Positions 29,320-48,446 of a stretch of 64,000 nucleotides of DNA are shown piece by piece. A program made the translations under genes and the position numbers. The stretch comes from Candidatus Eremiobacteria bacterium (lineage in GTDB: Bacteria > Vulcanimicrobiota > Vulcanimicrobiia > Vulcanimicrobiales > Vulcanimicrobiaceae). Position 1 is the stretch's first letter; every line of letters begins with the position of its first letter. Location of the stretch: the NCBI GenBank assembly GCA_963737065.1, contig CAVTRC010000001.1, forward strand, positions 1,856,001 to 1,920,000, read 5' to 3'. The notes below the pieces were generated by a model, which saw only the letters and a program-made list of their open reading frames with translations, searched no databases and had not been told where the DNA came from.

Positions 29320-29419
29320 GTTAGGCCTCGGACCGGCAATCACCGCCAACATGAGGCGCGAAAATGCTTTTTGCGCCGTCGCGGGCATATTTTATGGGCG
29401 AATGTTGAAATACACGCCG

Positions 29420-31556: not shown

Positions 31557-32351
31557 TTACGTCATTCGACTCGAGCCGTGAAGCTCGTGTTCGAGCGCCT
31601 GCAGTTCAGCACCGCCGGCCATGAGACGTATCAGGTTCTCCAGCGGAATTTCGGAACGAGCGGCATCGAGTTCCACGCGGCCGAGGGCGAGCACGACGAA
31701 ACGATCGCCCACCAAGTACGCATGGTGTGGGTTGTGGCTAATAAAAATCACGGCCAGTCCTGCGTCGCGCGCGGCAGAGATATATTTCAGGACGACGCCT
31801 GACTGCTTGATGCCGAGCGCCGCCGTCGGCTCATCCAGTATCACAACCCGTGCGCCGAAATAGATCGCTCGCGCAATGGCTATAACTTGCATTTCGCCGC
31901 CGGAGAGTTTGCCGACCGGCGCGTCGATATCCGCGAGATGGATTCCCATCTTCTCGAGTTCCTCGGACGCGATGCGGCGCATTGCCTCGATGTCGAGCCT
32001 GCGAAACGGCCCCCAGCCAGTTGTCAACTCGGAGCCCAGAAAGAAATTTCGCCAGACGGGCATGAGCGCCACGAGCGCGAGATCTTGATAGACGGTCGCG
32101 ATACCGAACGCTTTGGCCTCGCGAGGAGACGACAGACGAACTTCAGCCCCGTCGACGCATAAGACGCCCGTGTCATGCGGATGCAAACCAGAGACGATCT
32201 TGATTAACGTTGATTTCCCTGCGCCGTTGTCTCCAAGGATGCAGGTAACTTCTCCACGCCTCACCGTTAAACTGACGCCATCAAGCGCGCGAACGTTCCC
32301 GTAATATTTGCAGAGATCGGTCAGCTTAACGATTGCGGCCGGCGCGCTCAT
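31557..32351 (-). CDS. Sugar (inositol-type) ABC transporter ATP-binding protein
   Basis: GDNGAGKSTL, LSGGE and LDEPTAALG. Confidence 0.93.
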   Translation of the reverse strand: MSAPAAIVKLTDLCKYYGNVRALDGVSLTVRRGEVTCILGDNGAGKSTLIKIVSGLHPHDTGVLCVDGAEVRLSSPREAKAFGIATVYQDLALVALMPVWRNFFLGSELTTGWGPFRRLDIEAMRRIASEELEKMGIHLADIDAPVGKLSGGEMQVIAIARAIYFGARVVILDEPTAALGIKQSGVVLKYISAARDAGLAVIFISHNPHHAYLVGDRFVVLALGRVELDAARSEIPLENLIRLMAGGAELQALEHELHGSSRMT

Positions 32352-33391
32352 TTGCGGTCCACCTGATAGCGCACGAGCATGTTTACGAGCGTCGCGAGTA
32401 ATAGCATCGCGCCGAGAAAGAATTTAAACCAATCGGGATTCCAACCGGCATACACGACACCTTGGCTCACGACGCCGAAGATCAGCGCGCCTATTGCGGC
32501 GCCGATGACGGAGCCATAGCCACCGGTCAATAGACAACCGCCGACCACGGCGGCCACAATGTATTCCAGTTCGAGGCCCACGCCGCCGCCGGATTGCACG
32601 GTGTTGTAGGCAAACAGCTGATGCATGCCGGCGATCCACGCGCAGAATCCGACGGTCATAAAAAGCGCGACTTTCATTCGCTTGACCGGAACACCGGCCG
32701 CGCGCGCGCTTGCCGCATTACCACCGACCGCAAATACCCAGTTGCCGGCTGTCGTCCTTAGGAGGACCCACGTGCCTAACGCTACAAGGGCGAGCCACCA
32801 TATGATGCTGACGTTTACGTCTACGCCGCCGAACGTAAGCGTCGATGCGAAAAACGCCTTCGCCGAATCAAATCCCGCCATGTTCGAGATGTCGTTCGTA
32901 GCGACGTTCCCGCTTATAAGGCGCGTGATCGCAAGATTTATGCCTTGAAGCATGAGAAACGTCCCGAGCGTTACCAAAAAACTTGGTAAGCCGGTACGAA
33001 TCAGCATCCAGCCATTGAACGCGCCGATGGCGAGGGAAAGCGCCAAGCCGACAGCGACGCCGATCCACACGTTGGCATTGAATTGATACGCGAACATCGA
33101 TGCGCACAAGGCCGAAGTGATAACCGCGACGCCCGCGGAAAGATCGAATTCACCGCCGATCATAAGCAGTGCTACGCCGACCGCCATGATGCCGAGCGTG
33201 CCACTTTGGTAGAGCACGGTGCTGATGGACGCAGGATGGCGAATTGCGGGCGCAGTGATTCCAAAAAAGATAATTACCGCGACGGCTCCGATCAGCGAGC
33301 CGACTTCCGGTCTTGCAAGAAAGGTCCGAACAGCAGAACGGTGAGCTGACCGTTTGCGAAGCGGCGCGGACGGTGCAGCGGTCGAATTCAT
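32348..33391 (-). CDS. Sugar (inositol-type) ABC transporter permease
   Basis: GGEFDLSAG, AVGGNAASARAAGV and VVGGCLLTGGYGS. Confidence 0.93.
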   Translation of the reverse strand: MNSTAAPSAPLRKRSAHRSAVRTFLARPEVGSLIGAVAVIIFFGITAPAIRHPASISTVLYQSGTLGIMAVGVALLMIGGEFDLSAGVAVITSALCASMFAYQFNANVWIGVAVGLALSLAIGAFNGWMLIRTGLPSFLVTLGTFLMLQGINLAITRLISGNVATNDISNMAGFDSAKAFFASTLTFGGVDVNVSIIWWLALVALGTWVLLRTTAGNWVFAVGGNAASARAAGVPVKRMKVALFMTVGFCAWIAGMHQLFAYNTVQSGGGVGLELEYIVAAVVGGCLLTGGYGSVIGAAIGALIFGVVSQGVVYAGWNPDWFKFFLGAMLLLATLVNMLVRYQVDRK

Positions 33392-34347
33392 CGCGTCCCC
33401 TTCTCCGCGAACCGTGCAATCGCGCTGATGTTATGCGAGTCGATGAATGCTGGACCGGTAAGTATCGGTTGGCCGCCACCAATCACGTCGCCGTTGGTTA
33501 CCAACAGCCACAGCGCATCGACCGCTTCGTAGCCCTGTAGGTACGGCTGCTGGTCGATGGCCCAACGGACGCTTCCGTGTTGAATCGCCGCGACGAGTTG
33601 TTTGTTCGTGTCGAACGTGACGATTCTCGCGCCGCTGCGTGCAGCCTGTCCTGCGTCAACTGCAGTAAGCGCGATGGGCGCACCGAGCGTCACAATATAG
33701 TCGATACTCGGGTCCTGTTGAAGCTTCGCGGTAATCGTCGAACGGACGGACGGCATGTCCGCGCCGTTGACGTAAATTTTCTCGCTGCGCCCCTTCGTAA
33801 GACCATCTTGCACGCCCTGGCATCGTGCTTCCAGTTGAACCTGTCCCTGCGATTGAATCACGCAAAGCACATGCCTAGCGCCTTCACGGCTCAACCGCGT
33901 GCCGGCTGCGCGCCCGGCGAGCAGTTCGTCTTGTCCGATGTACATCGGGATGCCGAGCCGCTTCCATGCGCCAAAGCCGGCGTTGAACGCGATAACCGCA
34001 ATGCCCGCGGCTTGTGCGCGCCTGACGGCGCTTCCTAGTGCGTCGGGCGTCGCAAGGGTCAGCGCTATGCCGTCCACATGCTGATCGATCGCATTCTGAA
34101 CGAGCACAGCTTGCCCGTTAGCGTTCTGGTCGTTGGAATAGATAAGATCCACGTTGTCATTCGCAGCTGCCGCTTCCGCGCCGCGCCGGATGATGTCCCA
34201 GAACGTGTCTCCCGGAGGTTGGTGCGTAATCATCGCGATTCTCAGGCGAGGCGCGTTGACCGCGCCACCGGGCCGTCCGCGCGCGCCTCCCGTGCTGCTA
34301 CAACCGAATAACAGCAACAAACAAACCACGGCGGCGACATGTTTCAT
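33388..34347 (-). CDS. Sugar (inositol-type) ABC transporter substrate-binding lipoprotein
   Basis: Lipobox LFGC; DTFWDIIRRGAE and DQQPYLQGY. Confidence 0.92.
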   Translation of the reverse strand: MKHVAAVVCLLLLFGCSSTGGARGRPGGAVNAPRLRIAMITHQPPGDTFWDIIRRGAEAAAANDNVDLIYSNDQNANGQAVLVQNAIDQHVDGIALTLATPDALGSAVRRAQAAGIAVIAFNAGFGAWKRLGIPMYIGQDELLAGRAAGTRLSREGARHVLCVIQSQGQVQLEARCQGVQDGLTKGRSEKIYVNGADMPSVRSTITAKLQQDPSIDYIVTLGAPIALTAVDAGQAARSGARIVTFDTNKQLVAAIQHGSVRWAIDQQPYLQGYEAVDALWLLVTNGDVIGGGQPILTGPAFIDSHNISAIARFAEKGTR

Positions 34348-35420
34348 GTCGCAACGCCCACGTATTTCAGCACGGCGTCTCCAAATTTGCTCGTTGTGAG
34401 CGGTGAGTCGCTTGCGCGCGCAATATCGGACGTTCGCAAACCGTCACACACGACGCGTTCTACTGCGTATTCTATGCGTGATGCGGACGCATCATCGTTC
34501 AGACTGTATCGCAGCAGTAGCGCGGCAGAAAGAATCGCTCCGATTGGATTCGCGATGCCTCGTCCGGCGATGTCCGGAGCCGTGCCGCCGATCGGCTCGT
34601 ACAGTCCGAACGTTCCCCCTTGCGGACCCGCCCGGACGCTCGCGCTCGGCAAGTTGCCGATTGAGCCGCTGAGAATCGCAGCTTCGTCGGATAGAATATC
34701 GCCGAACATGTTTTCTGTAACGATAACGTCGAAATCGCGCGGCCTGCGCACGAGTTGCATCGAAGCGTTATCGACAAGAAGGTGAGTCAATTCGACGCTC
34801 GGATACTCGCGTGCGACTTCGTTGACGACCTCCCGCCAGAGCCGAGACGTCGCCAAGATGTTATATTTGTCGACGGAGGTAACGTGCTTACGCCGTTGCA
34901 TCGCAAGGTCGAAGGCGACCCGTGCAACGCGCTCCACTTCCTCTTCGCTGTATGACATCGTGTCGACCGCGCATCGCTTGCCTGCGGCATCGACTCTGCG
35001 TTCTTTGGGCCTACCGAAATAGATGCCTCCCGTCAGCTCGCGCACGACGATAAGATCCAAACCCTCTACGAGTTCCGTACGAAGGCTTGACGATCGTTCG
35101 AGTCCTGAGTACACGCGCACCGGACGAAGATTCGCGAAGAGTTCGTAATCATAGCGCAATTCGAACAGCGCGGCTTCTGGACGACGCTCGAAGTCAACAC
35201 CATCGAACAGCGGGTCTCCGACAGATCCGAAAAGAATTGCATCGCTACGTCTGCATAGCGCATCGGTGTCGCTCGGAAGTGGCGGAAGCCCCATGCGAAG
35301 CGCGGCCGCACCAACGGGCGCTTCAACACATTCGATGTCCGGGCGCACGCGCTGCAAAACGCGCACAGCCTCCGCCACGATTTCGGGGCCAATTCCATCT
35401 CCGGGCAACACGGCAATCAT
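34344..35420 (-). CDS. 3-isopropylmalate dehydrogenase-family beta-decarboxylating dehydrogenase (LeuB-like; proposed D-malate dehydrogenase)
   Basis: GDGIGPE, FANLRP, RELTGGIYFG, NMFGDILSDEA and APDIAG. Overlaps the transketolase and ABC genes by 4 bp each. Confidence 0.9.
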   Translation of the reverse strand: MIAVLPGDGIGPEIVAEAVRVLQRVRPDIECVEAPVGAAALRMGLPPLPSDTDALCRRSDAILFGSVGDPLFDGVDFERRPEAALFELRYDYELFANLRPVRVYSGLERSSSLRTELVEGLDLIVVRELTGGIYFGRPKERRVDAAGKRCAVDTMSYSEEEVERVARVAFDLAMQRRKHVTSVDKYNILATSRLWREVVNEVAREYPSVELTHLLVDNASMQLVRRPRDFDVIVTENMFGDILSDEAAILSGSIGNLPSASVRAGPQGGTFGLYEPIGGTAPDIAGRGIANPIGAILSAALLLRYSLNDDASASRIEYAVERVVCDGLRTSDIARASDSPLTTSKFGDAVLKYVGVAT

Positions 35421-36346
35421 ACGGTAGCGACCATATTCCGCACGCGTTGCGCGATGTGTTCGGCACTGAGGCCGTACTTGCGCAACAATTCATCATTAGG
35501 ACCGCTCTCGCCGTCGACGTCCATCAATCCGATACGCTCGATATGTGCCGGATAACGCTCGGCGAGCACCTCGGCTACGGCACCTCCGAGTCCGCCGTAT
35601 ATCGAGTGCTCCTCGCACGTGAGCAATCGCGGGATTGAGCGCGCGAATCGCACGACGGCTTCGGCATCGAGGGGTTTGATCGTCGGAACGTGCAGCACGG
35701 CAACGTGCACGCCTTCCTGCGAGAGCATTTCCGCCGCTTGAAGCGAGCGCACCGTCTGCCCGCCGGTTGCAATGATCCCCACGTCGCGGCCTTCCCGCAG
35801 CACACGGGTCCGGCCGATCGAGAAACCGTCATGTGGATTTGTCGCCGACGCAACCGGGTCGCGTAACAAGCGCATGTAGACCGGGCCATCATACGCTGTC
35901 GCTGCGACAATAGCTGCGCGCGCCTCGTGCGCGTCACACGGAGCTACGACCAGCATATGCGGTAGACTTCGCATGATTGCTATGTCGTTTACCACTTGAT
36001 GTGTCTTACCAGTGTATCCGGTTAAAATGCCGCTGTAGTGCGCCGCCAGCTTCACATTTAGGCGCGGCTGCGCCACGACGACGCGAACCTGATCCAGATC
36101 TCGTGTCGCCAAGAACGCTGCGAAGGAGCTAACCCACGGAATGAGTCCAGCCGTTGCCATTCCAGCCGCCACGCCAATCAGATTTTGTTCGGCGATCCCA
36201 AGCATGTAGAACGATTCGGGCGCGCGTAAGGCGACTTGGTCGGCCTTGGTGGAGTTCGCGAGATCGCCGTCTAGCACTACGACCCGCCGATCGGTCTTAC
36301 ATAGATCGACCAGTGTATTTCCGAACACGTCGCGCTGCGCGTTCAT
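35417..36346 (-). CDS. Transketolase, C-terminal subunit (pyrimidine-binding + C domain)
   Basis: GIAEQNL, THQ, GPVYMRL, TIKPLD and EEHSIYGGLG. Confidence 0.93.
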   Translation of the reverse strand: MNAQRDVFGNTLVDLCKTDRRVVVLDGDLANSTKADQVALRAPESFYMLGIAEQNLIGVAAGMATAGLIPWVSSFAAFLATRDLDQVRVVVAQPRLNVKLAAHYSGILTGYTGKTHQVVNDIAIMRSLPHMLVVAPCDAHEARAAIVAATAYDGPVYMRLLRDPVASATNPHDGFSIGRTRVLREGRDVGIIATGGQTVRSLQAAEMLSQEGVHVAVLHVPTIKPLDAEAVVRFARSIPRLLTCEEHSIYGGLGGAVAEVLAERYPAHIERIGLMDVDGESGPNDELLRKYGLSAEHIAQRVRNMVATV

Positions 36347-37176
36347 GTCAGCTCGGCCAACGCGCGCGACACTTCGTCGGCCGACAGCGGCCGCGAGTGC
36401 CACGTGAGGTCATTCTCCATGAAGGAGACGCCTTTGCCCTTGACCGTCGATGCGATGATCATCGAAGGTAAGCCGCGTTGCGATGACGCGCGTTTGCAGG
36501 CATCGACGAACGCGTCAATATCGTGCCCGTCGCATTCAATGACGTTCCAGCCGAACGCTTCCCATTTCGAGCGCGGATTCGGCGCCGGATCGCGTCGCAC
36601 CATCGAAGCATATCCCTCGTCCGTCGCCCAGCCGTACTGCTGCAGGCGATTCCAGTCGAGAATTGCTGTCAAGTTGTCCAGACTGTAGCGAGCTGCTGTA
36701 AACGCCGCTTCCCACACTTGTCCTTCTTGTGTTTCACCGTCTCCGAGCATGACCCACGTTCGATAGCCTTTGCCCAAACGGCGGCCGGCAAGCGCCATTC
36801 CAATGCCGGGCGACAGCCCTTGACCGAGCGATCCCGTCGACATATCGAGCCCCGGAAGCTTGCTCATGTCAGGATGGCCTTGCAGACGTGAGTCGATCGC
36901 ATCGAACGTTTCAAGCTCGACAACCGGAAAGTAACCGCGCAGTGCAAGCGTTGCATACAAGCCAATAGCACAGTGGCCTTTTGAAAGAATGAATCGATCG
37001 CGATCGGGGCCGTAGGGCTGTGCTGGATCGATATTAAGTACGTCGAAGTACAGCGCCGCAAGCATGTCGGCTGCTGAAAGCGCGCCGCCGATATGACCTG
37101 CGCCGGCGAAATGCACGGCCTGCAAGACCTCGCGTCGTATCCGGTTGCCGATATCCTGGAGCGTTTGCGCATTCAT
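36343..37176 (-). CDS. Transketolase, N-terminal ThDP-binding subunit
   Basis: GHIGG, DRFILSKGH, LQGHP, STGSLGQG, GDGETQEGQVWEA...DWN and TVKGKGV. Confidence 0.94.
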   Translation of the reverse strand: MNAQTLQDIGNRIRREVLQAVHFAGAGHIGGALSAADMLAALYFDVLNIDPAQPYGPDRDRFILSKGHCAIGLYATLALRGYFPVVELETFDAIDSRLQGHPDMSKLPGLDMSTGSLGQGLSPGIGMALAGRRLGKGYRTWVMLGDGETQEGQVWEAAFTAARYSLDNLTAILDWNRLQQYGWATDEGYASMVRRDPAPNPRSKWEAFGWNVIECDGHDIDAFVDACKRASSQRGLPSMIIASTVKGKGVSFMENDLTWHSRPLSADEVSRALAELT

Positions 37177-38051
37177 AATTGAAACCGCTCGCGCAGGTAC
37201 TCGCGGTTCGCTTTGGCGCAGGCGAACGGTTCGCGCGGTGCATCTTGCTCTACTATGATCCAGCCATCATAATGAGCCTCGCGGAGCGCGTCGACGATGC
37301 TGGGAATCGATACGACGCCCGTTCCCAATTCGACGAACATCCCAATACGGACGGCTTCAACGAAATCAAGACGCTCGCTCCGAACGCGTTCCAGCGTCGC
37401 GCCGTCGATGTCTTTGAGATGCACGTACCCGATTCGCGTTCGATAGTCGCTGAAAAGTTGCTCGGGATCCGAGCCGCCGTACGCGATATGGCCGGTGTCC
37501 GGGCATAGCATGAGGAGTGCAGGATCGGTGAGCTCGCACAATCGGTCGATTTCCTCGCGCGTTTCGACGTACGTGCCGACGTGCGGATGAAAAACGGCAC
37601 TCATCCCACGCTGCTGCAACGCGTCGCCGATGCGGTGTAACCCTTCGGCCATCGTCCGCCAAGCGCGCTCGCCCAGCATATCGTCGCGGCGGGCGCGCCC
37701 GGCGACGCGAATGCGTTCTGGTGATACTTCATCGGAAAGGATCAATACATGCGAGCCGACGCTCTGCAAACGGTCGGCGACGCGTATGCTGCTCGCTAAC
37801 GCGGCTTCATGATTTGCTTCGTCACGCACGTTAACCGCATGAAACGATGCAGCCGGCGCGAGATCGCGGGCGCGCAGCTCGCGTGCAATTGCGTGTGAGT
37901 CGTTTGGGAAATTATAGCTGATTTCCGTGCCTTCGTACCCGGCCTGCGCCATTTCGTCGAGCATCTGCTCGAAGCTCGGCGTACGGACCCACGTGTAGAG
38001 TGGATCAAAGCCCCAGTTCACGGAAGCAGTCCCAATGCGCATCGTGTTCAC
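37173..38051 (-). CDS. iolE: myo-inosose-2 dehydratase (IolE family TIM barrel)
   Basis: IGTASVNWG, FHPHVGTYVET, DTGH, HLKD and VEQD; inositol gene context. Confidence 0.78.
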   Translation of the reverse strand: MNTMRIGTASVNWGFDPLYTWVRTPSFEQMLDEMAQAGYEGTEISYNFPNDSHAIARELRARDLAPAASFHAVNVRDEANHEAALASSIRVADRLQSVGSHVLILSDEVSPERIRVAGRARRDDMLGERAWRTMAEGLHRIGDALQQRGMSAVFHPHVGTYVETREEIDRLCELTDPALLMLCPDTGHIAYGGSDPEQLFSDYRTRIGYVHLKDIDGATLERVRSERLDFVEAVRIGMFVELGTGVVSIPSIVDALREAHYDGWIIVEQDAPREPFACAKANREYLRERFQL

Positions 38052-38857
38052 CACGCCCACCCTTGTCGAATCCATTCATGCTGCGGATCAAACGTCATGT
38101 GATAGATGTGTTTGGGGCCGGCCAAGACATTCAAATAGTAAATGGCATATTCAGGAGCCGCTGCACAAACGTGATATCCGCGCGGAACGAGGACGATGTC
38201 GCGGTCGCGCGCAGCAATCGTCTCGTCGACGTCGCCTTCCGCCGTGTACACGCGCTGAAACGCAAAACCACACTCAGGTCGCGCTCGATAATAGTACAAT
38301 TCTTCGAGTGCCGATTCGTGCGGCGGATCGTCCTTGTCGTGCTTGTGTGGCGGATAGCTGGACCAATGTCCAGGTGGTGTGAGAACCTCTGTGATAAAGA
38401 GCGTTGATGCCGCCTCTGGGTCCATCAAAATGTCGTAGATGCGGCGCGATGCATTTCCCGTTCCACGATCGTGGGCGTCGGTTTCGTTCAGCGCAATCAG
38501 CCGTGCTGCGTGCGTGCCGCGCGCTTGTGCCGAGCAGATCGCGATCTCGCAGTCGCCACGCGCGCTCAACTTGTACGCCGTTGTTTGCGGAAGATACACG
38601 GCTTGTGGAGGGCCGTCGAACGGAGAGCGCCGTTCGCCGACGCGCTGCCAAGATGCGTGATCGCTCGTCACGTCGGCGGTTCCCTCGATAAACACGAGAA
38701 CCGCTTCATTGCCGCCCGTTTCCGCGGAGTATGAGCTGCCCTTCGCGAGCCGGACGATTTTAAAGTCTATGTACTTCCAGTCGTCGCCGTGTGGTGCGAC
38801 GGAGGCGATGACTCGGTCATCCGTACCGCGGGATCGCACGAGGAGGCTGCTTGTCAC
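38048..38857 (-). CDS. iolB: 5-deoxy-glucuronate isomerase
   Basis: EVLTPPGHWSSYPPHKHD, LEELYYYR, FQRVY, VPRGYH and YYLNVLAGP. Confidence 0.93.
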   Translation of the reverse strand: MTSSLLVRSRGTDDRVIASVAPHGDDWKYIDFKIVRLAKGSSYSAETGGNEAVLVFIEGTADVTSDHASWQRVGERRSPFDGPPQAVYLPQTTAYKLSARGDCEIAICSAQARGTHAARLIALNETDAHDRGTGNASRRIYDILMDPEAASTLFITEVLTPPGHWSSYPPHKHDKDDPPHESALEELYYYRARPECGFAFQRVYTAEGDVDETIAARDRDIVLVPRGYHVCAAAPEYAIYYLNVLAGPKHIYHMTFDPQHEWIRQGWAW

Positions 38858-38860
38858 CGT

Positions 38861-39877
38861 CTACGCGGCCTCGATGTCGGCCATTTTTACGGCGCAGCCG
38901 CTTTCCCGCGATTGATCCGCGGCGACTGCGATGCGCAGCGCTTCCAAAGCGTCGCGGCCGCCGACACGTGGACGTCCGTCCGCAGCAACGACGTCGATGA
39001 AGTCTTCGATTTCCGCGCGGTATGCATCCGAGAATCGTGTGAGAAACGAGTCGGTTTGGCGCGTTGCAAACGACGCGCCTAAGACGCGGCCGTTCTGCAT
39101 TTGCTCTGCGCCGGTCAGCAGTATCCCACGCGATCCATGGATCTCCGTGCGCACGTCATAGCCGTAGATCGCTTCACGCGATACATCCACAACCGCGATG
39201 GCACCGTTCGAGAAACGCAGCAACGCAACCGCCGTATCGACGTCGCCCGCTTCGCCGATCTCCCGTGCAATGGTCGCGCTTCCGGTCGCCGTTACCTCGA
39301 CGACTTCCGCGGGCTCGAGCAGCCAGCGCGCCGCATCGAAATCGTGAATCATCTGGTCTTTGAATTGACCTCCGCTCGTGGGAATGTACGCGATCGGCGG
39401 AAGGCAGCGATCGCGGCTGACGAGGCGAAGAAAACGGATGTCACCCACGGCGCCCGATCCGATAGCGTTGCGTGCGCTCAAAAAATCTCGATCAAAGCGG
39501 CGTTGAAAACCGATCTGCAGAATTACGCCCGCCTCCTCGCATGCGAGTATTGAGTTCAACGTCGCGCCGATATCGAGCGATATCGGCTTCTCGCAAAAAA
39601 TGTGCTTGCCGGCCGTCGCAGCGCTTGCGATCAGTTCTGCATGCGTCGGACTCGACGTCGCAATGACCACGGCGTCGATGTCGCGATCCCGCAAGAACGC
39701 TTCGATACTGTCCGCTTTGCCTTTGCCCATCGACGAAACGAGGCGCTGCGCAGCATCGCGATCGACATCGGCAACGCCTGCGAGCTCTGCTCGCGGGCTG
39801 AGCGATACCGCACGCGCGTGCGCTGCGCCCATGCGTCCTGCACCGAACACTGCAATGACAGGCCGCCCGCCGCGCAC
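38861..39877 (-). CDS. iolG: Inositol 2-dehydrogenase (Gfo/Idh/MocA)
   Basis: GAGRMG, CEKPI, GFQRRFD, SGGQFKDQMIHDFD and YGYDVRTE. Confidence 0.85.
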   Translation of the reverse strand: MRGGRPVIAVFGAGRMGAAHARAVSLSPRAELAGVADVDRDAAQRLVSSMGKGKADSIEAFLRDRDIDAVVIATSSPTHAELIASAATAGKHIFCEKPISLDIGATLNSILACEEAGVILQIGFQRRFDRDFLSARNAIGSGAVGDIRFLRLVSRDRCLPPIAYIPTSGGQFKDQMIHDFDAARWLLEPAEVVEVTATGSATIAREIGEAGDVDTAVALLRFSNGAIAVVDVSREAIYGYDVRTEIHGSRGILLTGAEQMQNGRVLGASFATRQTDSFLTRFSDAYRAEIEDFIDVVAADGRPRVGGRDALEALRIAVAADQSRESGCAVKMADIEAA

Positions 39878-41685
39878 TACGTCAGCGCCTCTTGCGTGCG
39901 CGCAGCTTCATACTCGGCGCGCTTTTCACCGTGGTAAGCGGGAACCGTGACGTCCCACCATCCGGTCGTCGTGAGTCCGCTCTCGGGCAACTCGCGGCTG
40001 CACAATGCTTCGACGACCGCTGGACGCTCCGACGCGAAGGCACGCCGCAGCGCATCTGCGAGCTGCGCCGGTTCCTCAACGCGCTCTGCATGGCAGCCGA
40101 AACCTTCCGCAATCTGCGCTAGATTAGCGGAGAACGGGCTGCCGTCGCGCTTCTTGAAGTTCGTTGCGATAACGCGATCTGGGCCAAACTGCAACGTCTG
40201 CAAATTCTTGATGCACTCCCAGCCGTAGTTATTCATTACGAGGAAGACGGCCGGTACATCGTATTGCGCAGCCATCGCCAATTCCTGAACCGTCTGCAGA
40301 AAGCTGCCGTCGCCGACGATTGCGAGCACTTGCCGGTTCGGCGCCGCCAGTTTGGCACCGATTGCACCTGGCACCTCAAAGCCCATCGCCGAAAATCCGC
40401 CCGGCGTGATGTGCTGACGGCTTCCGTACACGGGAAACTCGGTGAATACTTGGCTTTGCGGATTGCCTGCGCCGGTAACTACAATCCCGTCGCGTTCGAG
40501 AACCTGCCGCGCGACAACAAGCGCTCGGGAGATCGTCATCGGATTGGCGTTGCTCTCTCGCATCGGTCGCAACGCTTCTTGCCACTCGTTCTTCAGGCTC
40601 TGAATGCGCTCGAAATACGCAGTAGAGCGGTACGCCCGCGGAGCCGACAACTCGTGCAGCGACGACAGCAAATCGTCGAGCGTGGCGCGTGCATCACCGA
40701 CGATGCCGACTTCTACCGGATAGTTCTTGCCGATCTCATACGGGTCGAGATCGATTTGTATGAGTTTTGTCGGTGGAATGTTGAAGGTGATCCCGCGCCT
40801 AAATGAAGATGTGGTGCGGTCCGTGAACCGGCAGCCGACCGCGAGCACGACGTCAGCTTCGCGCGCTAGCGTGTTGCCGGAAATCGAGCCGAGGTCGCCG
40901 CAGGGCCAAGCATACAGATCGTGGTCCTCGGGTATCGCGCCTTTTCCCATCCATGTAACCGTCACGGGGGCGCCTAGAAACTCCGCCAGTAGCCGCAGCG
41001 CCGGCTCGGCGCTCGACGAGATCACGCCGCCGCCCGCCAAAATCATGGGACGCTCTGCGCTCAACAGCAGCTGTGCCGCCTCCTCCACCGCCTTTGGATC
41101 GCCGTGCGAACGGCCGCGCGGGCGGCGTGCGACGGGATCCGGGAGTGCGTCGATCTCTGCGAATTCGGCTTGCACATCCATTGGGATATCGATGTGTGCG
41201 GGCCCACGCCGCCCCTCGAGCATGACGTTGAACGCAAGATGCAATACGTTGGGCAGCTGATCTACTCGACTGGGCTGCCACCACCGTTTGACGATGGGCT
41301 CCATCAGCCGCGGAAAGTTGGCCCAGTGCGTGCGTTCGAGTTCTTGCAGCACGCCGCGTCCGCGCATGTACGTGTGAACCGAACCGGTGAGAAGAAGCAA
41401 CGGCATCGAATCGACGTAGGCGCACGCCACGCCCATTGCGGTATTTACTGCACCCGGCCCGATGGACGTGAAAACGCCGCACGGTTTAGCGGCGACGCGG
41501 TAATACGCGTCCGCCATGTGCGCTGCGCCTTGCTCGTGAATCGCTTGGATTACCGCGATATCATCGCGCCTGTCGACGAATGCATCGAGGAGTGCGGTAA
41601 TGCCGTGACCGGGAACGCCAAACACCATCGGCACGCCTTCTCGGATGAGATATTCTGCGACGATTTGCCCCCCGGTCATTCGCAT
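39877..41685 (-). CDS. iolD: ThDP-dependent enzyme, IolD-like trihydroxycyclohexanedione acylhydrolase
   Basis: PGHG, HEQGAAHMA, TSIGPGAVN, VLQELE and GDGSF...MNN ThDP motif; first enzyme gene of the iol operon. Confidence 0.72.
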   Translation of the reverse strand: MRMTGGQIVAEYLIREGVPMVFGVPGHGITALLDAFVDRRDDIAVIQAIHEQGAAHMADAYYRVAAKPCGVFTSIGPGAVNTAMGVACAYVDSMPLLLLTGSVHTYMRGRGVLQELERTHWANFPRLMEPIVKRWWQPSRVDQLPNVLHLAFNVMLEGRRGPAHIDIPMDVQAEFAEIDALPDPVARRPRGRSHGDPKAVEEAAQLLLSAERPMILAGGGVISSSAEPALRLLAEFLGAPVTVTWMGKGAIPEDHDLYAWPCGDLGSISGNTLAREADVVLAVGCRFTDRTTSSFRRGITFNIPPTKLIQIDLDPYEIGKNYPVEVGIVGDARATLDDLLSSLHELSAPRAYRSTAYFERIQSLKNEWQEALRPMRESNANPMTISRALVVARQVLERDGIVVTGAGNPQSQVFTEFPVYGSRQHITPGGFSAMGFEVPGAIGAKLAAPNRQVLAIVGDGSFLQTVQELAMAAQYDVPAVFLVMNNYGWECIKNLQTLQFGPDRVIATNFKKRDGSPFSANLAQIAEGFGCHAERVEEPAQLADALRRAFASERPAVVEALCSRELPESGLTTTGWWDVTVPAYHGEKRAEYEAARTQEALT

Positions 41686-41700
41686 CTGTCGTCTACCTCT

Positions 41701-42489
41701 CTATGTAAGCGCGCCGGCCGCGGCCTGGACGTATCCGAGTTGCGCGGAGATGGTTTGTGCCGCAGCGCAAATGCAAAGCGCGACGTCGGGGATGCGGTCG
41801 CGCGTGAGGCGTACGGCGGGCGAAGAGATTCCAAACGACGCGATCACAAGGCCGGTGTGGTCCCTCACGGGCGCGGCGATGCAGCGAACACCGGGATGCA
41901 GCTCCTCTTCATCGACGGCGTACCCGACGCGACGCACGCGCGCTAAGTCTTTGTCCAACTCGTCGACGCTCGTCATGGTATGCGGCGTAAACCGCCTCAG
42001 CGGGGACGTCCCAAGGAGTTCGACTAATTGAACGTATGTGAAGTCGGTAAGCAGCGCTTTGCCGATCGCCGTACAGTACAGCGGTTCCGCGGTGCCGATC
42101 GTAGTCTCTACGCGCAAAATGCCCGTAGCAGATTGCGCTGCGACGGAGACTGCAGATTGCCGTTCGCGAACCGCAACATGCGTGTTTTCGCCCGTCTCGA
42201 GAGCAATCTCTCGCAAATGCGACTGCGCTATCTCCACGACGCTGAGCCGGCGCAGCAGGGCTGACGCAATCTCCAGGATGCCGTATCCGACGGAATACTT
42301 TTTCGTCTCGCTATGCTGCATGGCGAACCCGTGAGTTTCTAAGGTCGCAAGCAGCCGGTACGCGGTGCTCGGATCGACGTTCAGCCGTTCCGCAATTTCG
42401 GTGACGCCGGCACCTGCCGGCTGCTCGGCGAGCAAACGCAAGATGTTCAAGCCTCGTGACAACGAGTTGATGAGAGTGGGACCAGCCAT
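41701..42489 (-). CDS. IclR family transcriptional regulator
   Basis: SLSRGLNIL..GVTEIAERLNVDPSTAYRLLATL, CTAIGKALL and GYAVDEEELHPGVRCIAAPV. Confidence 0.94.
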   Translation of the reverse strand: MAGPTLINSLSRGLNILRLLAEQPAGAGVTEIAERLNVDPSTAYRLLATLETHGFAMQHSETKKYSVGYGILEIASALLRRLSVVEIAQSHLREIALETGENTHVAVRERQSAVSVAAQSATGILRVETTIGTAEPLYCTAIGKALLTDFTYVQLVELLGTSPLRRFTPHTMTSVDELDKDLARVRRVGYAVDEEELHPGVRCIAAPVRDHTGLVIASFGISSPAVRLTRDRIPDVALCICAAAQTISAQLGYVQAAAGALT

Positions 42490-42492
42490 TCT

Positions 42493-42601
42493 TTCAATGT
42501 GGCATCTTATTGCACTATCGTCAAGGAGCGCTCTCATACGAAGCTAGGTCTCTCGATAATTATGCAAGGCCATTGACAATTTTGCAATTGCATGGGTGAA
42601 T
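42493..42601. promoter_or_regulatory. AT-rich divergent promoter region with palindromes (candidate IclR operators)
   Basis: TTGACA at 42573, palindrome TGCAATTGCA at 42583-92, ATAATTAT at 42556-63, and TTCAAT-N10-ATTGCA at 42493-514. Confidence 0.45.
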
Positions 42602-42639
42602 GATTCCCGTAGCCCGCTTCCAGGGCGGAGGTACGACTG

Positions 42640-45345
42640 ATGGACACTTGCAGCAGAATCTGCTCGCGTACCGCTCTTCTCGCGATCTTTTTCGTTGCGC
42701 CGGCGCTGATTTGCGCGCCGGTCAGCGCGCAGACGGCAAACTCGCCCGTCAGCGCGCAGACGCCAAACTCGCCCAAATATACGATAAGCGGCACGGTCGT
42801 TGACCAGCAGAGCTCCTTGCCGATTTCCGACGCTCGTCTAACGCTCGTCGAAGGAAACGCAACGATCGCTACAACGCGCTCGGATATATCCGGCGCGTTC
42901 AAGTTCCCCGCGGTTTCCCCGGCACTATACAACATTCTCATCACTGCCGCGGGACATGAGAGCGGGCGTTCTGACGATATTGCGCTCGCGGGCGGTCCCG
43001 CGACCGTTTCGCTCGTACTCGCACCAAGTACGACGGCGAATACCGGAAACTCACTCAAAACGATCGCACACGTCACGACTCGTGCGGGCGGCCTACAAAC
43101 CACGACGACGATTCAGCAGCAAATCGACCCGAACATTATCCAAAACCAAGGGAACCTGCGCGTGGCGGAATCCCTCGGCAAATTGCCGGGCGTAAACATG
43201 GTGGGGTCGGACTCGGCAATCGGCGACGACATTTCGGTCGACATTCGCGGATTAAAGCCTAGTGAGACGCAAGTATTGCTTGACGGGCATCCGATCGGAC
43301 CGATCGGTGTGTATCCTGCGCGCATCGGCGGCGGAACCGGCGGCTACGACTATCAGGTTTCACCGACCTTCGCGCTGCAGAACATTCAAGTCGTGTATGG
43401 TTCCGGTGCTACGGGACTGTACGGCGTCGATGCGGTAGGCGGCGCGGTCGATTTCCAGACGCTGAACCCGTCACTTCGCCCATCAGGCACGCTGAAGATC
43501 GGTACAGGGATGCTCGGTAAACAACTTTCGGCCGTGCAGACAGCGGGCACGTCGGGGAAGTTTGCCTGGGTTCTGCTGCACGGCGTCACCGGTGCTTACG
43601 GTAATTTCCCTGGCGCTGTTATTCCGCAAACCGGCCTTCGGGGGACGGACTTTACGTCTGCGACATACAGCGGCGTCACGTACTGGGTTGGCGGCGACTA
43701 CGTTCTGCGCAACGATCTCGGCAAGATACAGTATGCGTTCTCACCTGCCACCACGCTAAGTTTTACCGGATATTCAGCCACGTCGCGCGACGATAAGACG
43801 GGCGAAGGTGACAACGACTTCATCACGCCGGACTATGCGACCTATCAAGCGCAGCAGAACACAAACTGCAGCACGCCTTCCGGTGTAGCGGGTATTAAGG
43901 TTATGGTCGACTCCGGGAGCGCGTGCTACACGCCGCAACAGTATGGGCAAGGCGCGAGCGGACCAGCGGGCGGCGGCCCTGGCGCCTTTCAAGCCCTGGC
44001 GAATCAAGATTACCATGCGCGACTGACTACAAGCGCGGGTCGTAATCAAATCGTGCTGGATTCGTACATTGACAACTACAGCCAGAACCGCGAACGCCCG
44101 GAGTCGTTTGTCAACGGTCCGCTGTCGATATTGAACGTGACGTATCGTTCGATCGGCTCACTGCTTAGCGACGACATCGCCTTTTCAAAGAACGACGTGG
44201 GATTCGGCGCGTTCTCAATGCGTCAGTATACGAACGGCCAAAATATCAGCGGCACAAACGTGATCCCGCATGCTCCGATATTCGATAAACTGGACAGCTT
44301 CTTCGTGCGCGACGTATACGAGCCGGGCGGCCACTTATCGTTTTTCTTGAATTCGTGGCTGAAACACTCGAACGTCGGCGGCAATTCGTTCGATCCTCGT
44401 TTGTCGATCATATACCGGCCGACGTTGTCGGACGTATTTCGACTCACCGGGGGGAAATCGTCCGCGGATCCGGCCCCGCTCGCTCCACAGCTGACCGGTA
44501 TCGGAGGCATCACTCCGGGCAACTGCAAGCTAATTTCTGTAGGCGAAGCGCAGTCTCCGAACGAACTGCCCGAACGCGCAAGCGACCTAGAAGCATCATA
44601 CGCGCACCATTTCACGGCGGATACCAACATACAGTTGGTTGCGTATGATACGAATGAAATAAACACGATTTTCCAAGGACAAGAACCCGCCGCCGACTTC
44701 CTGGACTTCATAAATCAGGCCGGCGCGAACTACCTGCCTAGCGTGTTTGCGAAGATAACACAGCTTTGTCCTAGCTTCCAACCGCCGAATCCCGGCCCGA
44801 CGATCGCGAATCTCGTCGTCAACACCAATTTGAACCTCGCTCGTGAGCGCGCTCGCGGACTGGAGTTGAGCGGCCGCATGCGAATCACCCCGCATCTCGC
44901 AATCGACGGCTACTATGATCTGCAGTCTGCCATGATTTTCGACGCGCCTCAATCCCTCTTGACCAGTAACGTGACGCTGATAAACGGCTCGCAACTTCCG
45001 GAGATTCCGCTTCATAAGTTCGGACTCGCAGTCGACATTACGAACACTCATGGCGCAGAAATCTATATTGACTACACGCATCTCGATAGTAACAACTCGT
45101 TCAATCGCCCCGCCTTCGGATGGGCCGACGCAATGTTGACGCAGAGCGTATCCAAGCAATTGTCCTTGAATCTCGGCATCACTAACGTGTTCAATTCTGC
45201 AGTCGACAACTACGGACGGATCGGCTGGGGAGTATACGTACCGGAAAATGAATACGGAACAGATGCAAACGCTCTCGCGCAAGGGACAGAGCGCTTCGGT
45301 CTTTTGCCGACGGCCGTAACGTTTTCGCTGACTGAAAAATTCTGA
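42640..45345 (+). CDS. TonB-dependent receptor with N-terminal carboxypeptidase-regulatory-like domain
   Basis: Signal peptide; ISGTVVD domain; plug (LGKLPGV, IRG, VLLDGHP, YGVDAVGGAVDF); GITNVFN; terminal F. Confidence 0.9.
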   Translation: MDTCSRICSRTALLAIFFVAPALICAPVSAQTANSPVSAQTPNSPKYTISGTVVDQQSSLPISDARLTLVEGNATIATTRSDISGAFKFPAVSPALYNILITAAGHESGRSDDIALAGGPATVSLVLAPSTTANTGNSLKTIAHVTTRAGGLQTTTTIQQQIDPNIIQNQGNLRVAESLGKLPGVNMVGSDSAIGDDISVDIRGLKPSETQVLLDGHPIGPIGVYPARIGGGTGGYDYQVSPTFALQNIQVVYGSGATGLYGVDAVGGAVDFQTLNPSLRPSGTLKIGTGMLGKQLSAVQTAGTSGKFAWVLLHGVTGAYGNFPGAVIPQTGLRGTDFTSATYSGVTYWVGGDYVLRNDLGKIQYAFSPATTLSFTGYSATSRDDKTGEGDNDFITPDYATYQAQQNTNCSTPSGVAGIKVMVDSGSACYTPQQYGQGASGPAGGGPGAFQALANQDYHARLTTSAGRNQIVLDSYIDNYSQNRERPESFVNGPLSILNVTYRSIGSLLSDDIAFSKNDVGFGAFSMRQYTNGQNISGTNVIPHAPIFDKLDSFFVRDVYEPGGHLSFFLNSWLKHSNVGGNSFDPRLSIIYRPTLSDVFRLTGGKSSADPAPLAPQLTGIGGITPGNCKLISVGEAQSPNELPERASDLEASYAHHFTADTNIQLVAYDTNEINTIFQGQEPAADFLDFINQAGANYLPSVFAKITQLCPSFQPPNPGPTIANLVVNTNLNLARERARGLELSGRMRITPHLAIDGYYDLQSAMIFDAPQSLLTSNVTLINGSQLPEIPLHKFGLAVDITNTHGAEIYIDYTHLDSNNSFNRPAFGWADAMLTQSVSKQLSLNLGITNVFNSAVDNYGRIGWGVYVPENEYGTDANALAQGTERFGLLPTAVTFSLTEKF
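42718..42771 (+). repeat. 27-bp tandem duplication (PVSAQTANS/PVSAQTPNS)
   Basis: Two near-identical 27-nt units at the signal peptide cleavage region. Confidence 0.8.
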
Positions 45346-47040
45346 TGCGATGGGTGTACGTCTCGCTGGCCGCGACGCTCAGCGTCGCGGCCGCCTTCCT
45401 TTTCCCGCCAAGCGCGACACCGTCGCCGAACCCCGCGCAGGTCACGCTCGTTCGCCAACGCATCAAACACGTTTTTATCATCTACCAAGAAAACGAGTCG
45501 TTTGACCATTACTTCGGCAGCTACCCGGGTGCCGACAACCTTGCAACGATATCGGCTGCGTTTCATGGCTTCCGTCAGTACGATCCAATCGCGCGCGCGT
45601 GGACGACGCCGTTTCGGATAACGGATCCGGACGTCGAAAGCCCGGATCATTCGAGACGCGCACTTATCGCTAAAATGCACGGTGGGAAAATGGACCGGTA
45701 CGTCGCGGTTCAGGAACAATCATCGGCGAAAGATGGCTATACGTCGGCAGATCAGGAGCGGCTGGGACAGACTCACGATGTCCTATTACGACTGCGACAC
45801 GATACCGTTTTTATGGAAATACGCTCGCGCATTCACGCTTTGGGATCACTTCTTTCAAGCCATGACCGCGCCGTCCACGCCTGGCAACATCGAAGTAATC
45901 GCTGCGCAGAGCGGACAGACGCAAGCCGCTCGCGATTCACACCTTGTCGTTGCAAAGGACGGCTCGGGTGCCGGCGTGCCAGTCGAAAACAGCATGGATC
46001 CTCCGTTTGGTCCGTATCCGGGACCCGCTCCGGCTAAAACACAGATCGTGCAGCGGTATGCCACGGTGATGCTCACGCTCAACGGCCGCGACAATGTTAA
46101 AGCACGCGTCGACCTGCGCGGCGTTCGCGAAGACGTGCACGAGCTTGCCGAAAGTGGAAGAATGTCCGTTCCGTGGGGATGGTATCAGGAAGGATACAAC
46201 GGTCCCGAACGACGAGCACTAAAAGGATACTCGGCGCACCACAACGCGTTGCAGTACTTTGCGTACTTGCGGCATAATGACGTCTTTTGGAATCACGTGT
46301 ATCCGTTAAAGGATCTATTGCGCGCAGTGCGCGGCGGCACGTTGCCGCATCGCGGCGCTTTTTACATCAAAGGTGGAAACCTTAACCGCTTCGGATGGCG
46401 CCCTGCAAACCGTTCGCCGTTCATCCAGCGCAACTTTCTCGGCGACGATGACCATCCGGGAACAGGCGACTCGGATCGACAAGTTGCCGAGTCGTTCGTG
46501 GCTACGTTTGTTAACGCTGTTGCGCGAAGCCGGTACTGGAATGATTCGGCTATTATTATTACGTGGGACGATTCCGGTGGGTTTTTCGACCACGCTCCGT
46601 CCCCGAGTTTCGAACGTTGCTGGGACGGCTATCCATGTGGCGACGGTCCACGAGTGCCGCTCATCGTGATTTCACCGTTCGCGCGGTCGCATGCGGTTGT
46701 TCACGACAGCGCGGACACTGCATCAGTCGTGCGCTTTCTCGAAACAGTGTTCAGTCTTTCCCCGCTCGCAACGCTCCCGAACGAGCGGCGCTTCATGCCG
46801 GAGGGGCCGCGCGACACAAACGCGCGCTTATCTAACTTATTGTCAGCGTTCGATCGGGAACGCCTTACGGCGAAACGACCGGCTATTCCAGCGGCGGCGG
46901 CGATCGTACCTGATGCGGTTGTCGATCGTTTCCCGGCAGCGATGAATTGCAGCAGCCTCGGCATACGGCCACAGCGCATCCCCGGCAGGAATACGCCACC
47001 GGCTGGTTTCCATGGCCTGCCGAAGCAATTGCTCCCATAA
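45345..47040 (+). CDS. Exported phosphoesterase (phospholipase C / acid phosphatase AcpA family), frameshift near 45768
   Basis: IKHVFIIYQENESFDHYFG in the first frame; LWDHFFQA, DDHPG, ITWDDSGGFFDH and GPRVPLIVISPFA in the second. Confidence 0.85.
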
Positions 47041-47054
47041 CGAGGACCTACTTC

Positions 47055-48446
47055 ATGAGCACCATCGCTTCGGCGAACGTGATCACGACCGTAAACCCTG
47101 CAACTGGGTCACCTCTTTCCGAATACGAGGTCAACGGGGCAGCCGAGATCGATAAGCGGCTCGACGCCGCGCATGACGCGTTCATGGAATGGCGAAATAC
47201 TCCAATGGAGACGCGTCAAGCGCTGTTGCAGGCCCTGGCCGCGCATTTCCGCGCAAAGCGTTCGGAATACGGGCGGTTGATCACCCTTGAGATGGGAAAG
47301 GCGATCATCGAATCGGAAGCCGAAATTGAGAAATGCGCCTGGGCCTGCGAATACTATGCGGCGAACGCGCCGACGCAGGTTGCACCCGAAGCTATCTCAA
47401 CGGCGGCCGTTCGCAGTTATTCCGCATACCGCCCGCTGGGCGTAGTCCTTGCGATTATGCCGTGGAATTTTCCGTTCTTCCAAGTCGTTCGGTTTGCCGT
47501 TCCGGCTATCGCAGTGGGAAACGCCGCGGTGTTAAAGCACGCCGCCAATGTAACGGGCTGCGCCTTGGCGCTCCAGCAAGCATTTGAATATGCCGGCTTT
47601 CCTCGTCGGCTTTTCACCACTCTCGTCATTCGGGCGAATCAAGTCGCATCGATCATCGCCGACCAGCGGATTGCAGCCGTAACGTTTACGGGAAGCGACG
47701 GCGCGGGATCCGACGTTGCGGCGGTAGCGGGTAAGCACGTAAAAAAGAGCGTCCTCGAGCTTGGCGGATCCGACGCATTTATCGTTCTCGCGGACGCGGA
47801 TGTGGAGACGGCGGCGAAGACCGCCGTGCGCGCGCGTTTTCAAAATTGCGGGCAAAGCTGTATCGCGGCGAAGCGCTTCATCGTCCATGACTCGGTACAC
47901 GAGTCGTTCTGCGAGCGATTCGTTCACTACGCGCGGGAGATCGTGGTTGGCGATCCACTGGAACGCGCCACAACAATGGGCCCGCTAGCGCGACCTGATT
48001 TGGTCGACGAGTTGCAGCGGCAAGTTTCCGTGTCTCTGTCGCTCGGTGCAACGGCCGTCCTTGGCGGTACGCGTATACCTGGCGCGGGCGCGTTTTACGA
48101 GCCCACCATTCTGAAAGGCGTTCTGCCGGATATGCCCGTTTCCCGGGAAGAGACGTTCGGTCCGGCTGCGGCGGTCCTTAAAGCACGCGATGAAAACGAG
48201 GCGGTTGATCTGGCCAATGCATCGGTATTCGGATTAGGAAATAGCGTTTGGAGTCGCGATCTCGACCGCGCCGAGCGGATCGCCGCGCGCTTGCAATCCG
48301 GCCTGGTCTTCGTCAACAGCATGACCGCGTCCGACCCGCGTTTGCCGTTCGGCGGAGTGAAGCGCAGCGGCTATGGGCGCGAGCTCGCGCAGTTCGGCAT
48401 ACGCGAATTTGCAAATGTACAAACCGTTTCCGTCGCCGGCTCATAA
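47055..48446 (+). CDS. NAD(P)-dependent aldehyde dehydrogenase, Sad/succinate-semialdehyde dehydrogenase type
   Basis: IMPWNFPF, LKHA, FTGS, LELGGSD, NCGQSCIAAKRF, EETFGP and PFGGVKRSGYGREL. Confidence 0.92.
   Translation: MSTIASANVITTVNPATGSPLSEYEVNGAAEIDKRLDAAHDAFMEWRNTPMETRQALLQALAAHFRAKRSEYGRLITLEMGKAIIESEAEIEKCAWACEYYAANAPTQVAPEAISTAAVRSYSAYRPLGVVLAIMPWNFPFFQVVRFAVPAIAVGNAAVLKHAANVTGCALALQQAFEYAGFPRRLFTTLVIRANQVASIIADQRIAAVTFTGSDGAGSDVAAVAGKHVKKSVLELGGSDAFIVLADADVETAAKTAVRARFQNCGQSCIAAKRFIVHDSVHESFCERFVHYAREIVVGDPLERATTMGPLARPDLVDELQRQVSVSLSLGATAVLGGTRIPGAGAFYEPTILKGVLPDMPVSREETFGPAAAVLKARDENEAVDLANASVFGLGNSVWSRDLDRAERIAARLQSGLVFVNSMTASDPRLPFGGVKRSGYGRELAQFGIREFANVQTVSVAGS

Follow-up and report, generated by a model that had tools for sequence, protein, structure and literature searches.

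The DNA analysed here, called the window, is a stretch of 64 000 nucleotides from a Candidatus Eremiobacteria bacterium, an organism of soil that is uncultured (positions 1,856,001–1,920,000 of contig CAVTRC010000001.1; assembly GCA_963737065.1, 3.08 Mb in two contigs, 95% complete, so that about 5% may be missing from every genome-wide negative below). It carries a conserved, probably co-regulated variant of inositol catabolism that is outside the canonical pathway: IolC and IolJ were not found in the genome, and a divergent protein takes the position of IolD. On the basis of gene content, we propose that 2-deoxy-5-keto-D-gluconate (DKG) is cleaved by a split transketolase to malic semialdehyde, which would then be oxidized to D-malate and pyruvate; we estimate the probability of this reading at about two in three.

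Canonical myo-inositol catabolism of the Bacillus subtilis type uses IolG, IolE, IolD, IolB, IolC, IolJ and IolA, and in this established pathway the product of IolB is DKG. The window resembles it in its homologues of IolG, IolE and IolB, in a gene like that of the ring hydrolase dependent on thiamine diphosphate (ThDP), and in an ATP-binding cassette (ABC) transporter of the inositol type. It differs in that no IolC or class II aldolase was found in the genome, the IolA-type gene is unlinked, IolD is replaced by a sister family, and a transketolase, a LeuB and a Sad-type aldehyde dehydrogenase (ALDH) are added. The features are listed below, with family scores given, here and throughout, as score/curated cut-off.

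31557..32351, minus strand: sugar ABC transporter ATPase (PF00005)
32348..33391, minus strand: sugar ABC permease (PF02653)
33388..34347, minus strand: solute-binding protein, probably for myo-inositol (PDB 4RU1, E 1.6e-118; next match 2.7e-16)
34344..35420, minus strand: second beta-decarboxylating dehydrogenase of the LeuB family in the genome; putative D-malate dehydrogenase (TIGR00169 440/353)
35417..36346, minus strand: tktC, transketolase C-terminal subunit, 309 amino acids, rebuilt pocket (alignment to E. coli TktA; PDB 6YAJ/6YAK)
36343..37176, minus strand: tktN, transketolase N-terminal subunit (His28/68/101/260 = E. coli H26/66/100/261)
37173..38075, minus strand: IolE-like inosose dehydratase (TIGR04379 214/290; top PDB matches are IolE proteins)
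38048..38857, minus strand: IolB, 5-deoxyglucuronate isomerase (TIGR04378 301/205)
38861..39877, minus strand: IolG-like inositol 2-dehydrogenase (TIGR04380 352/355)
39877..41685, minus strand: IolD-like ThDP enzyme from a family sister to that of IolD, occupying the place of IolD (TIGR04377 332/715)
41701..42489, minus strand: IclR-family regulator (PF01614, PF09339), ATG start at 42489, set by comparison with relatives
42510..42524, minus strand: 15-bp operator/-35 element, oriented towards the iol operon (conservation in relatives)
42573..42587, plus strand: the other copy of this 15-bp element, oriented towards the divergent arm (conservation in relatives)
42640..45345, plus strand: TonB-dependent receptor (PF07715, PF13620)
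45345..47040, plus strand: phosphoesterase-family gene, split over two frames near 45,770 (PF04185)
47055..48446, plus strand: Sad-type, succinate-semialdehyde-dehydrogenase-like ALDH; proposed malic semialdehyde dehydrogenase (top PDB match E. coli Sad, E 3e-129)

Operon, operator and conservation

Eleven genes follow one another on the minus strand in the order iclR, iolD-like, iolG, iolB, iolE, tktN, tktC, leuB, solute-binding protein, permease and ATPase. The successive gaps are 15, -1, 3 and -28 bp and then six times -4 bp, and the tightly coupled operon from iclR to the ABC genes described in the initial annotation is borne out, each gene lying where it had been placed. The divergent arm, on the plus strand, consists of the TonB-dependent receptor, the phosphoesterase and the ALDH.

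The intergenic region holds two inverted copies of the 15-bp sequence TTGAC-N5-(T/C)GCAA, and paired inverted sites of this kind are present in all 17 upstream regions of the genomes that carry the operon. A matrix made from the 15-bp sites ranks the two sites of the window first in the genome, which is circular where these two are concerned; the score that follows (19.7) belongs to a site inside a coding sequence. This genome-wide scan found no strong site upstream of any other gene, and in a shuffled megabase every score stayed below 17. A generic promoter scan was uninformative (one site against 0.5 expected). Because the two inverted conserved copies lie between the arms, both arms are probably one regulon.

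IolB is matched in 29 of the 301 genomes of the phylum, to which G017, found separately, was added. The order iclR-iolD-like-iolG-iolB-iolE-tktN-tktC-leuB is kept in all 17 iolB genomes of the same class, the operon of G200 being divided between two contigs. None of these 17 has an IolC over the cut-off (best 171 bits), compared with 13 of 13 in the other classes; of the 11 loci fetched from these 13, several ended by contig edges, none has tkt and 10 have iolC. An association of tkt and leuB with iol genes, and an anti-correlation of the split transketolase with iolC, had been put forward as checks in the initial annotation, and both come out in its favour here.

The transketolase pocket and the proposed route

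TktN and TktC together have the transketolase fold and retain all of the catalytic residues His26/66/100/261/473 and Glu411. In the alignment to E. coli TktA, TktC retains Arg5, Ser32, Glu53, His116 and Arg162, and residues H461, E468, D469 and P471 correspond to Tyr104, Tyr111, Thr112 and Lys114. The sugar-phosphate pocket keeps R358, S385 and R520, with H461 changed to Tyr and D469 to Thr. Tyr461 and Thr469 are found together in 118 of the 120 best TktC homologues, with Lys471 in 117 and Arg in one, the other two being outside the pattern; the closest relatives are labelled Eremiobacteraeota. A tree was made from 131 concatenated sequences, after duplicates and loci without a long match to either subunit had been dropped. 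The Tyr/Lys clade has a support of 1.0, and iol neighbours are found at none of the 60 collapsed leaves with the canonical motif.

Engineered variants offer a comparison. E. coli TktA R358I/H461S/R520Q is described as cleaving 5-keto-D-gluconate to tartaric semialdehyde, and the same cleavage, followed by a semialdehyde dehydrogenase, has been proposed for tartrate synthesis in grape (PMC12016104, PMC11066805); H461S and D469T are reported to raise transketolase activity on non-phosphorylated, non-hydroxylated or carboxylated aldehydes (PMC5073344, PMC3657141). The step proposed here would concern the same bond of a non-phosphorylated 5-keto-aldonate, likewise with H461 changed and, as proposed, with semialdehyde oxidation next. 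However, the precedent is a single-chain enzyme altered by engineering or, for plants, a hypothesis, whereas here the subfamily is natural and split, the donor would be a 2-deoxy acid and the route would be catabolic.

Other split transketolases differ from this one. That of Carboxydothermus hydrogenoformans (PDB 6YAK/6YAJ) is likewise encoded by two genes and has the same fold (template modelling score ~0.9) and the catalytic His and Glu residues, but keeps His461 and the GEDG motif. SqwGH, of the sulfoquinovose sulfo-transketolase pathway, and AptAB, of apiose catabolism, are also split; no sulfoquinovose or apiose pathway genes are present in the locus, every gene of which is assigned to some other family, and the distinction is drawn from this gene content. 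A full-text literature search, judged by titles and abstract openings and with most subscription papers and supplements outside its reach, found no description of transketolase cleavage of DKG or of such an operon.

The locus would be an inositol regulon under the control of IclR, in which another lower branch has taken the place of the usual one. Myo-inositol would be supplied by the outer-membrane receptor, the phosphoesterase and the ABC system, and 4RU1, the closest match of the solute-binding protein, is termed a verified myo-inositol transporter (PMC10747050). Going by family assignments and, for the IolD-like protein, by position and motifs, IolG, IolE, the IolD-like protein and IolB would lead to DKG. 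We take DKG to be the 2-deoxy form of the 5-keto-D-gluconate donor, (3R,4S) by Cahn–Ingold–Prelog reasoning; by the same reasoning its two centres presumably match those of D-xylulose, and (R)-malic semialdehyde would be what remains after cleavage. The split transketolase would use unphosphorylated DKG as ketol donor and release this semialdehyde, with an aldose phosphate from the pentose phosphate pool (glyceraldehyde 3-phosphate, erythrose 4-phosphate or ribose 5-phosphate) accepting the C2 unit. Loss of Asp469 and gain of the lysine would make room for the donor carboxylate, and the retained Arg/Ser/Arg would still bind the phosphorylated acceptor. We make no claim from docking, because the TktC model has low confidence at the pocket loop (predicted local distance difference test below 50 at residues 107–109 and 115–119). 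The Sad-type dehydrogenase, as the co-regulated or a generic copy, would convert the semialdehyde to D-malate, which the recruited LeuB copy would decarboxylate to pyruvate.

For these last steps, the lower pathway of L-carnitine catabolism in Acinetobacter baumannii is similar: conversion of malic semialdehyde to D-malate and then to pyruvate and CO2, by an ALDH of the succinate-semialdehyde dehydrogenase family and a beta-decarboxylating dehydrogenase, is reported to have been reconstituted (PMC11353897). There, the semialdehyde comes from CntAB, and the enzymes proposed here are instead of the Sad and LeuB types.

It had been claimed at first that the route spends no ATP and forms three NAD(P)H. 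We propose the same for the steps of the operon itself, and for these only, because the aldose-phosphate acceptor, whose recycling had been ignored, must be regenerated. By our arithmetic, regeneration via transketolase and transaldolase, phosphofructokinase and aldolase would consume two ATP or PPi for every three inositols; the alternative is to oxidize the C2 unit through the oxidative pentose phosphate route. A phosphofructokinase-like gene is present in the genome. Phosphoketolase was considered as a fate of xylulose 5-phosphate and rejected, there being no PF09364 match in the genome.

Points against the route and alternative readings

Several observations weigh against the route. It is a deduction from genes, and the split of 17 versus 13 genomes with respect to IolC is one phylogenetic contrast, for which reason it is not treated as a statistic. 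Others concern the upper pathway. IolB is over its curated cut-off, but IolG and IolE are under theirs, each being nonetheless the best family and the best PDB match. The gene first annotated as canonical iolD belongs to a divergent sister family, its product scoring well below the TIGR04377 cut-off and below the 861–963 bits of canonical IolDs; it is 28–30% identical to these, compared with 78–91% among the operon copies. The motifs GHG, SIGPGA, LQxxE and WWD are common to both families and, with the position beside IolE and IolB, lead us to infer that the protein performs ring hydrolysis. Its nearest outside relatives (47–60%) are in non-iol clusters, with HisD-like genes in four of the five records opened, three of these also having a GMC oxidoreductase; the fifth lies near iolM. 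The relatives accompanied by the HisD-like dehydrogenase, mostly with the oxidoreductase, are from Rhizobium, Priestia, Shinella and Arthrobacter plasmids (L203, L204, L206, L208).

The low scores of the IolD-like and IolE-like proteins and the company kept by the former would suit a reading in which the pathway starts from a different cyclitol or stereoisomer, or the ring is opened differently, the transketolase donor being a related 5-keto-aldonate and not DKG, with a lower module of the same kind. So would the pocket: D469T has no obvious fit with DKG, because the hydroxyl to which Asp469 normally binds is retained in DKG, and a donor without that hydroxyl would suit it better. Some transketolase relatives also adjoin enzymes of the 5-ketogluconate type. 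We nevertheless find this reading improbable, since IolB, whose product is DKG, is over its cut-off, the solute-binding protein is closest to a myo-inositol binder, and the same transketolase subfamily accompanies canonical IolD, IolE and IolG in Bacilli (see below).

Other points concern the C4 steps. The LeuB-like enzyme, to which the initial annotation assigned D-malate as a core substrate of LeuB/tartrate/DmlA-family enzymes, is a paralogue of the other LeuB of the genome (66% identical) and not a DmlA/TtuC. It retains the catalytic Arg, Tyr, Lys and Asp and scores as an ordinary LeuB, over the TIGR00169 cut-off and under that of the tartrate/D-malate dehydrogenase model (TIGR02089, 222/470). 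LeuB is said, in the title of an article by Khan et al. from 2020, to support growth on D-malate. Leucine synthesis does not explain the second copy, because in this genome IlvC was not found and LeuA was not over its cut-off. The operon copies cluster in the tree (support 0.999 in family f1, 0.946 in family f3 and 0.92 for the two joined); in f3, this type of LeuB is present only as the operon copy (5/5) and absent from both non-operon genomes, and a different type adjoins leuCD. On the other hand, the reading frame of the operon leuB is interrupted by a stop codon in G012, and in G017 the gene is truncated. Phe86 and Ile188 stand at the places of Leu and Val in E. coli LeuB, with Leu/Val in 13 of 18 ilvC-positive genomes and Phe/Ile in all six ilvC-negative ones, a division along ilvC presence that is suggestive, although kinship among the genomes confounds it. 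Phe86/Ile188 was rejected as a marker for the copy in the operon, being common to non-operon copies, with Phe86 also in 5 of the 18 ilvC-positive genomes; Gly at the His position of the NAD loop was rejected as well, E. coli LeuB also having Gly.

IlvC is present in 62 of 151 genomes of the family. Genes similar to those for homocitrate/isopropylmalate synthase (L146 5279–6679), LeuCD (L147 2230–4017) and LeuB (L135 1501–2583) are kept at three separate places of the window's genome although no IlvC was found there.

The ALDH matches the A. baumannii malic semialdehyde dehydrogenase entry 8S33 with E 2e-82, less well than E. coli Sad. Its membership of the pathway locus, as initially annotated, holds in part: orthologues (at least 59%) are found in 9 of the 17 operon genomes, compared with 2 of 17 others, and all nine lie in the operator-linked receptor arm, two of them across a contig break, but an orthologue is missing from the other eight. 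Six of these eight have a generic Sad at 49–55%; no Sad-type match was found in the remaining two, both fragmented assemblies.

This patchy distribution, and the ordinary isopropylmalate dehydrogenase score of LeuB, would agree with a reading in which the transketolase step is right and the C4 product is handled otherwise, LeuB having as its substrate a different hydroxy acid or, directly, an intermediate from further up the pathway, and the ALDH being incidental. In the same direction, iol-tkt clusters of Chloroflexota and Bacilli have no LeuB, and one in Bacilli is followed by lactonase, short-chain dehydrogenase, CoA-transferase and thiolase genes (L229 573–6092), possibly another fate for the C4 product. 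The confinement of all nine ALDH orthologues to the operator-linked arm, the generic Sad in six of the eight remaining genomes, and the recurrence in Bacilli of an ALDH with a tartrate/D-malate dehydrogenase beside this transketolase subfamily make it unlikely in our view.

A further reading is that an unlinked kinase and aldolase, or a class I aldolase with relaxed specificity, split DKG into a triose and malonate semialdehyde, the transketolase and LeuB being accessory. The initial annotation was right that iolC, iolJ and iolA/mmsA are absent from the locus, and the genome-wide check agrees for the first two: the best score with the IolC model is 39 bits compared with 300, and tblastn of the genome with two single proteins, E. 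coli GatY and FbaA, as queries and with no family model found no class II aldolase. It does not agree for the third, an IolA/MmsA-type enzyme (664 bits) being encoded elsewhere. An MmsA that exceeds the cut-off is encoded by 15 of the 17 operon genomes, and one class I aldolase was found in the window's genome with an FbaB query; both would serve the unlinked cleavage. Against it, the MmsA gene lies inside an aminotransferase/amino-acid-permease operon and is also present in non-operon genomes, and the only PfkB protein of the genome is the heptose kinase HldE. Queries of the LacD/DeoC-like and IolC-fusion kinds had no tblastn match genome-wide (again single proteins, no family model), and a transaldolase-like query matched only the housekeeping Tal. 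Moreover, no other gene has a strong operator upstream, and the genome already has two ordinary transketolases, both with His461 and Asp469 intact. We regard this reading, too, as having little probability.

Chloroflexota bear on the same point. In a genome scan of 80 loci, four of this phylum have iolD/iolE beside tkt; the three of these scanned have a canonical IolD, and none has an IolC over the cut-off. A class survey gave 44 matches in 35 of 251 genomes. Among the unpublished genomes, G471 and G424 are within these 35, and G312 (L005) contributes a single row to alignment A1 and to the tree; G036 is in the tally from which G017 came, and G014, G973, G241 and G283 entered one other analysis. 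No conclusion rests on unpublished genomes. Of the 40 loci fetched, 38 have Tyr461, and 11 of these 38 adjoin iol genes, the other 27 being without them. IolC is over the cut-off in none of the 14 genomes tested, four of which scored 227–260 bits; in G422 (260 bits) and G527 (256 bits), the IolC-like kinase adjoins iolB in the transketolase cluster. Some of the transketolases are accompanied by a LacD-like aldolase, and transaldolase-like genes (26–30% identical to the housekeeping Tal) flank iolB or sit in iol clusters, sometimes with an atypical transketolase (L157–L162, L168, L171, L200). Because the transketolase co-occurs there with IolC-like, aldolase or transaldolase-like genes, the view that it strictly replaces the kinase and aldolase is weakened, and the unlinked cleavage gains some support.

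The transketolase subfamily in other settings and minor features

In Bacilli, 40 of 401 genomes were matched, and of 20 loci fetched (top scores and a hand-picked spread) seven have the atypical motif. Two clusters read iolG-iolD-iolE-tktN-tktC, one running on to iolB and the other ending at a contig edge; IolD, IolE and IolG are canonical and neither genome has an IolC over the cut-off (182 and 186 bits). Three further transketolase loci have no iol genes (L224 5856–16905, L226 115–10200, L227 8889–19198). They encode an ALDH, a tartrate/D-malate dehydrogenase over its cut-off, two Zn-dehydrogenases with matches that include idonate 5-dehydrogenase, a tripartite ATP-independent periplasmic (TRAP) transporter and a phosphofructokinase. 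Judging from their genes, they are candidate operons for the catabolism of 5-keto-aldonate to tartrate, in which a different decarboxylating dehydrogenase would have been recruited to the same transketolase module. One atypical locus in Bacilli lies beside a gene similar to 5-keto-L-gluconate epimerase (276/300), and another transketolase relative is followed by one similar to gluconate 5-dehydrogenase (229/279), both under the cut-off. A Curtobacterium plasmid has the order iolG-iolB-iolD-succinate-semialdehyde dehydrogenase-iclR-iclR-tktN-tktC, with a kinase similar to 1-phosphofructokinase.

A wider view would be that natural, widespread split transketolases with Tyr461, Lys471 and no Asp469 are specialized for non-phosphorylated 5-keto-aldonic acids and anchor a reusable kinase-free module of ketol cleavage, semialdehyde oxidation and beta-decarboxylation. 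This module would sit under inositol ring opening here, via D-malate, and under idonate/gluconate oxidation in Bacilli, via tartrate or D-malate. We hold the chances for and against this view to be evenly balanced.

Because inositol use is predicted from iolC/iolJ, carriers of this branch in at least four phyla would be scored as incomplete or unable. If the proposal is true, there is a natural 5-keto-acid transketolase of the kind that engineers, with tartrate and carboxylated aldehydes in view, have been making through mutations of H461, D469 and R520; it would be a bacterial counterpart of the long-proposed step from 5-ketogluconate to tartrate, and a wild-type enzyme would be at hand for testing that step. 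Among cultured bacteria, the subfamily is present in Curtobacterium sp. MCJR17_020, where it accompanies iol genes on plasmid P20, and, in other contexts, in Paenibacillus thalictri and Salinicoccus sp. YB14-2.

Members of the subfamily are also found in other surroundings. Loci L011 and L006 have no iol genes; there the transketolase is accompanied by an ALDH, a TRAP transporter and two genes similar to those for idonate dehydrogenase. A large subclade in Chloroflexota (L175–L198; motif variants such as GQTGMSH) is accompanied by GntR regulators, ALDH and branched-chain-type ABC genes, and again by no iol genes. Other members lie directly behind an EIIC component of the phosphotransferase system, of the ascorbate/galactitol family (L007, L009, L166).

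In the divergent arm, the gene families of the initial annotation stand, but the phosphoesterase lies in two frames. A relative has one uninterrupted frame at the corresponding place and, because frameshifts are common in the assemblies of many relatives, the split may be an assembly error. In several relatives, the phosphoesterase is followed by a conserved beta-propeller-like gene of about 305 amino acids (L209 7963–8880, L210 7718–8635, L211 9702–10610, L084 13824–14744) that is absent from the window. A glycoside-cation symporter gene, beside a DUF885 gene, adjoins the end of the operon on the opposite strand (29228–30793).

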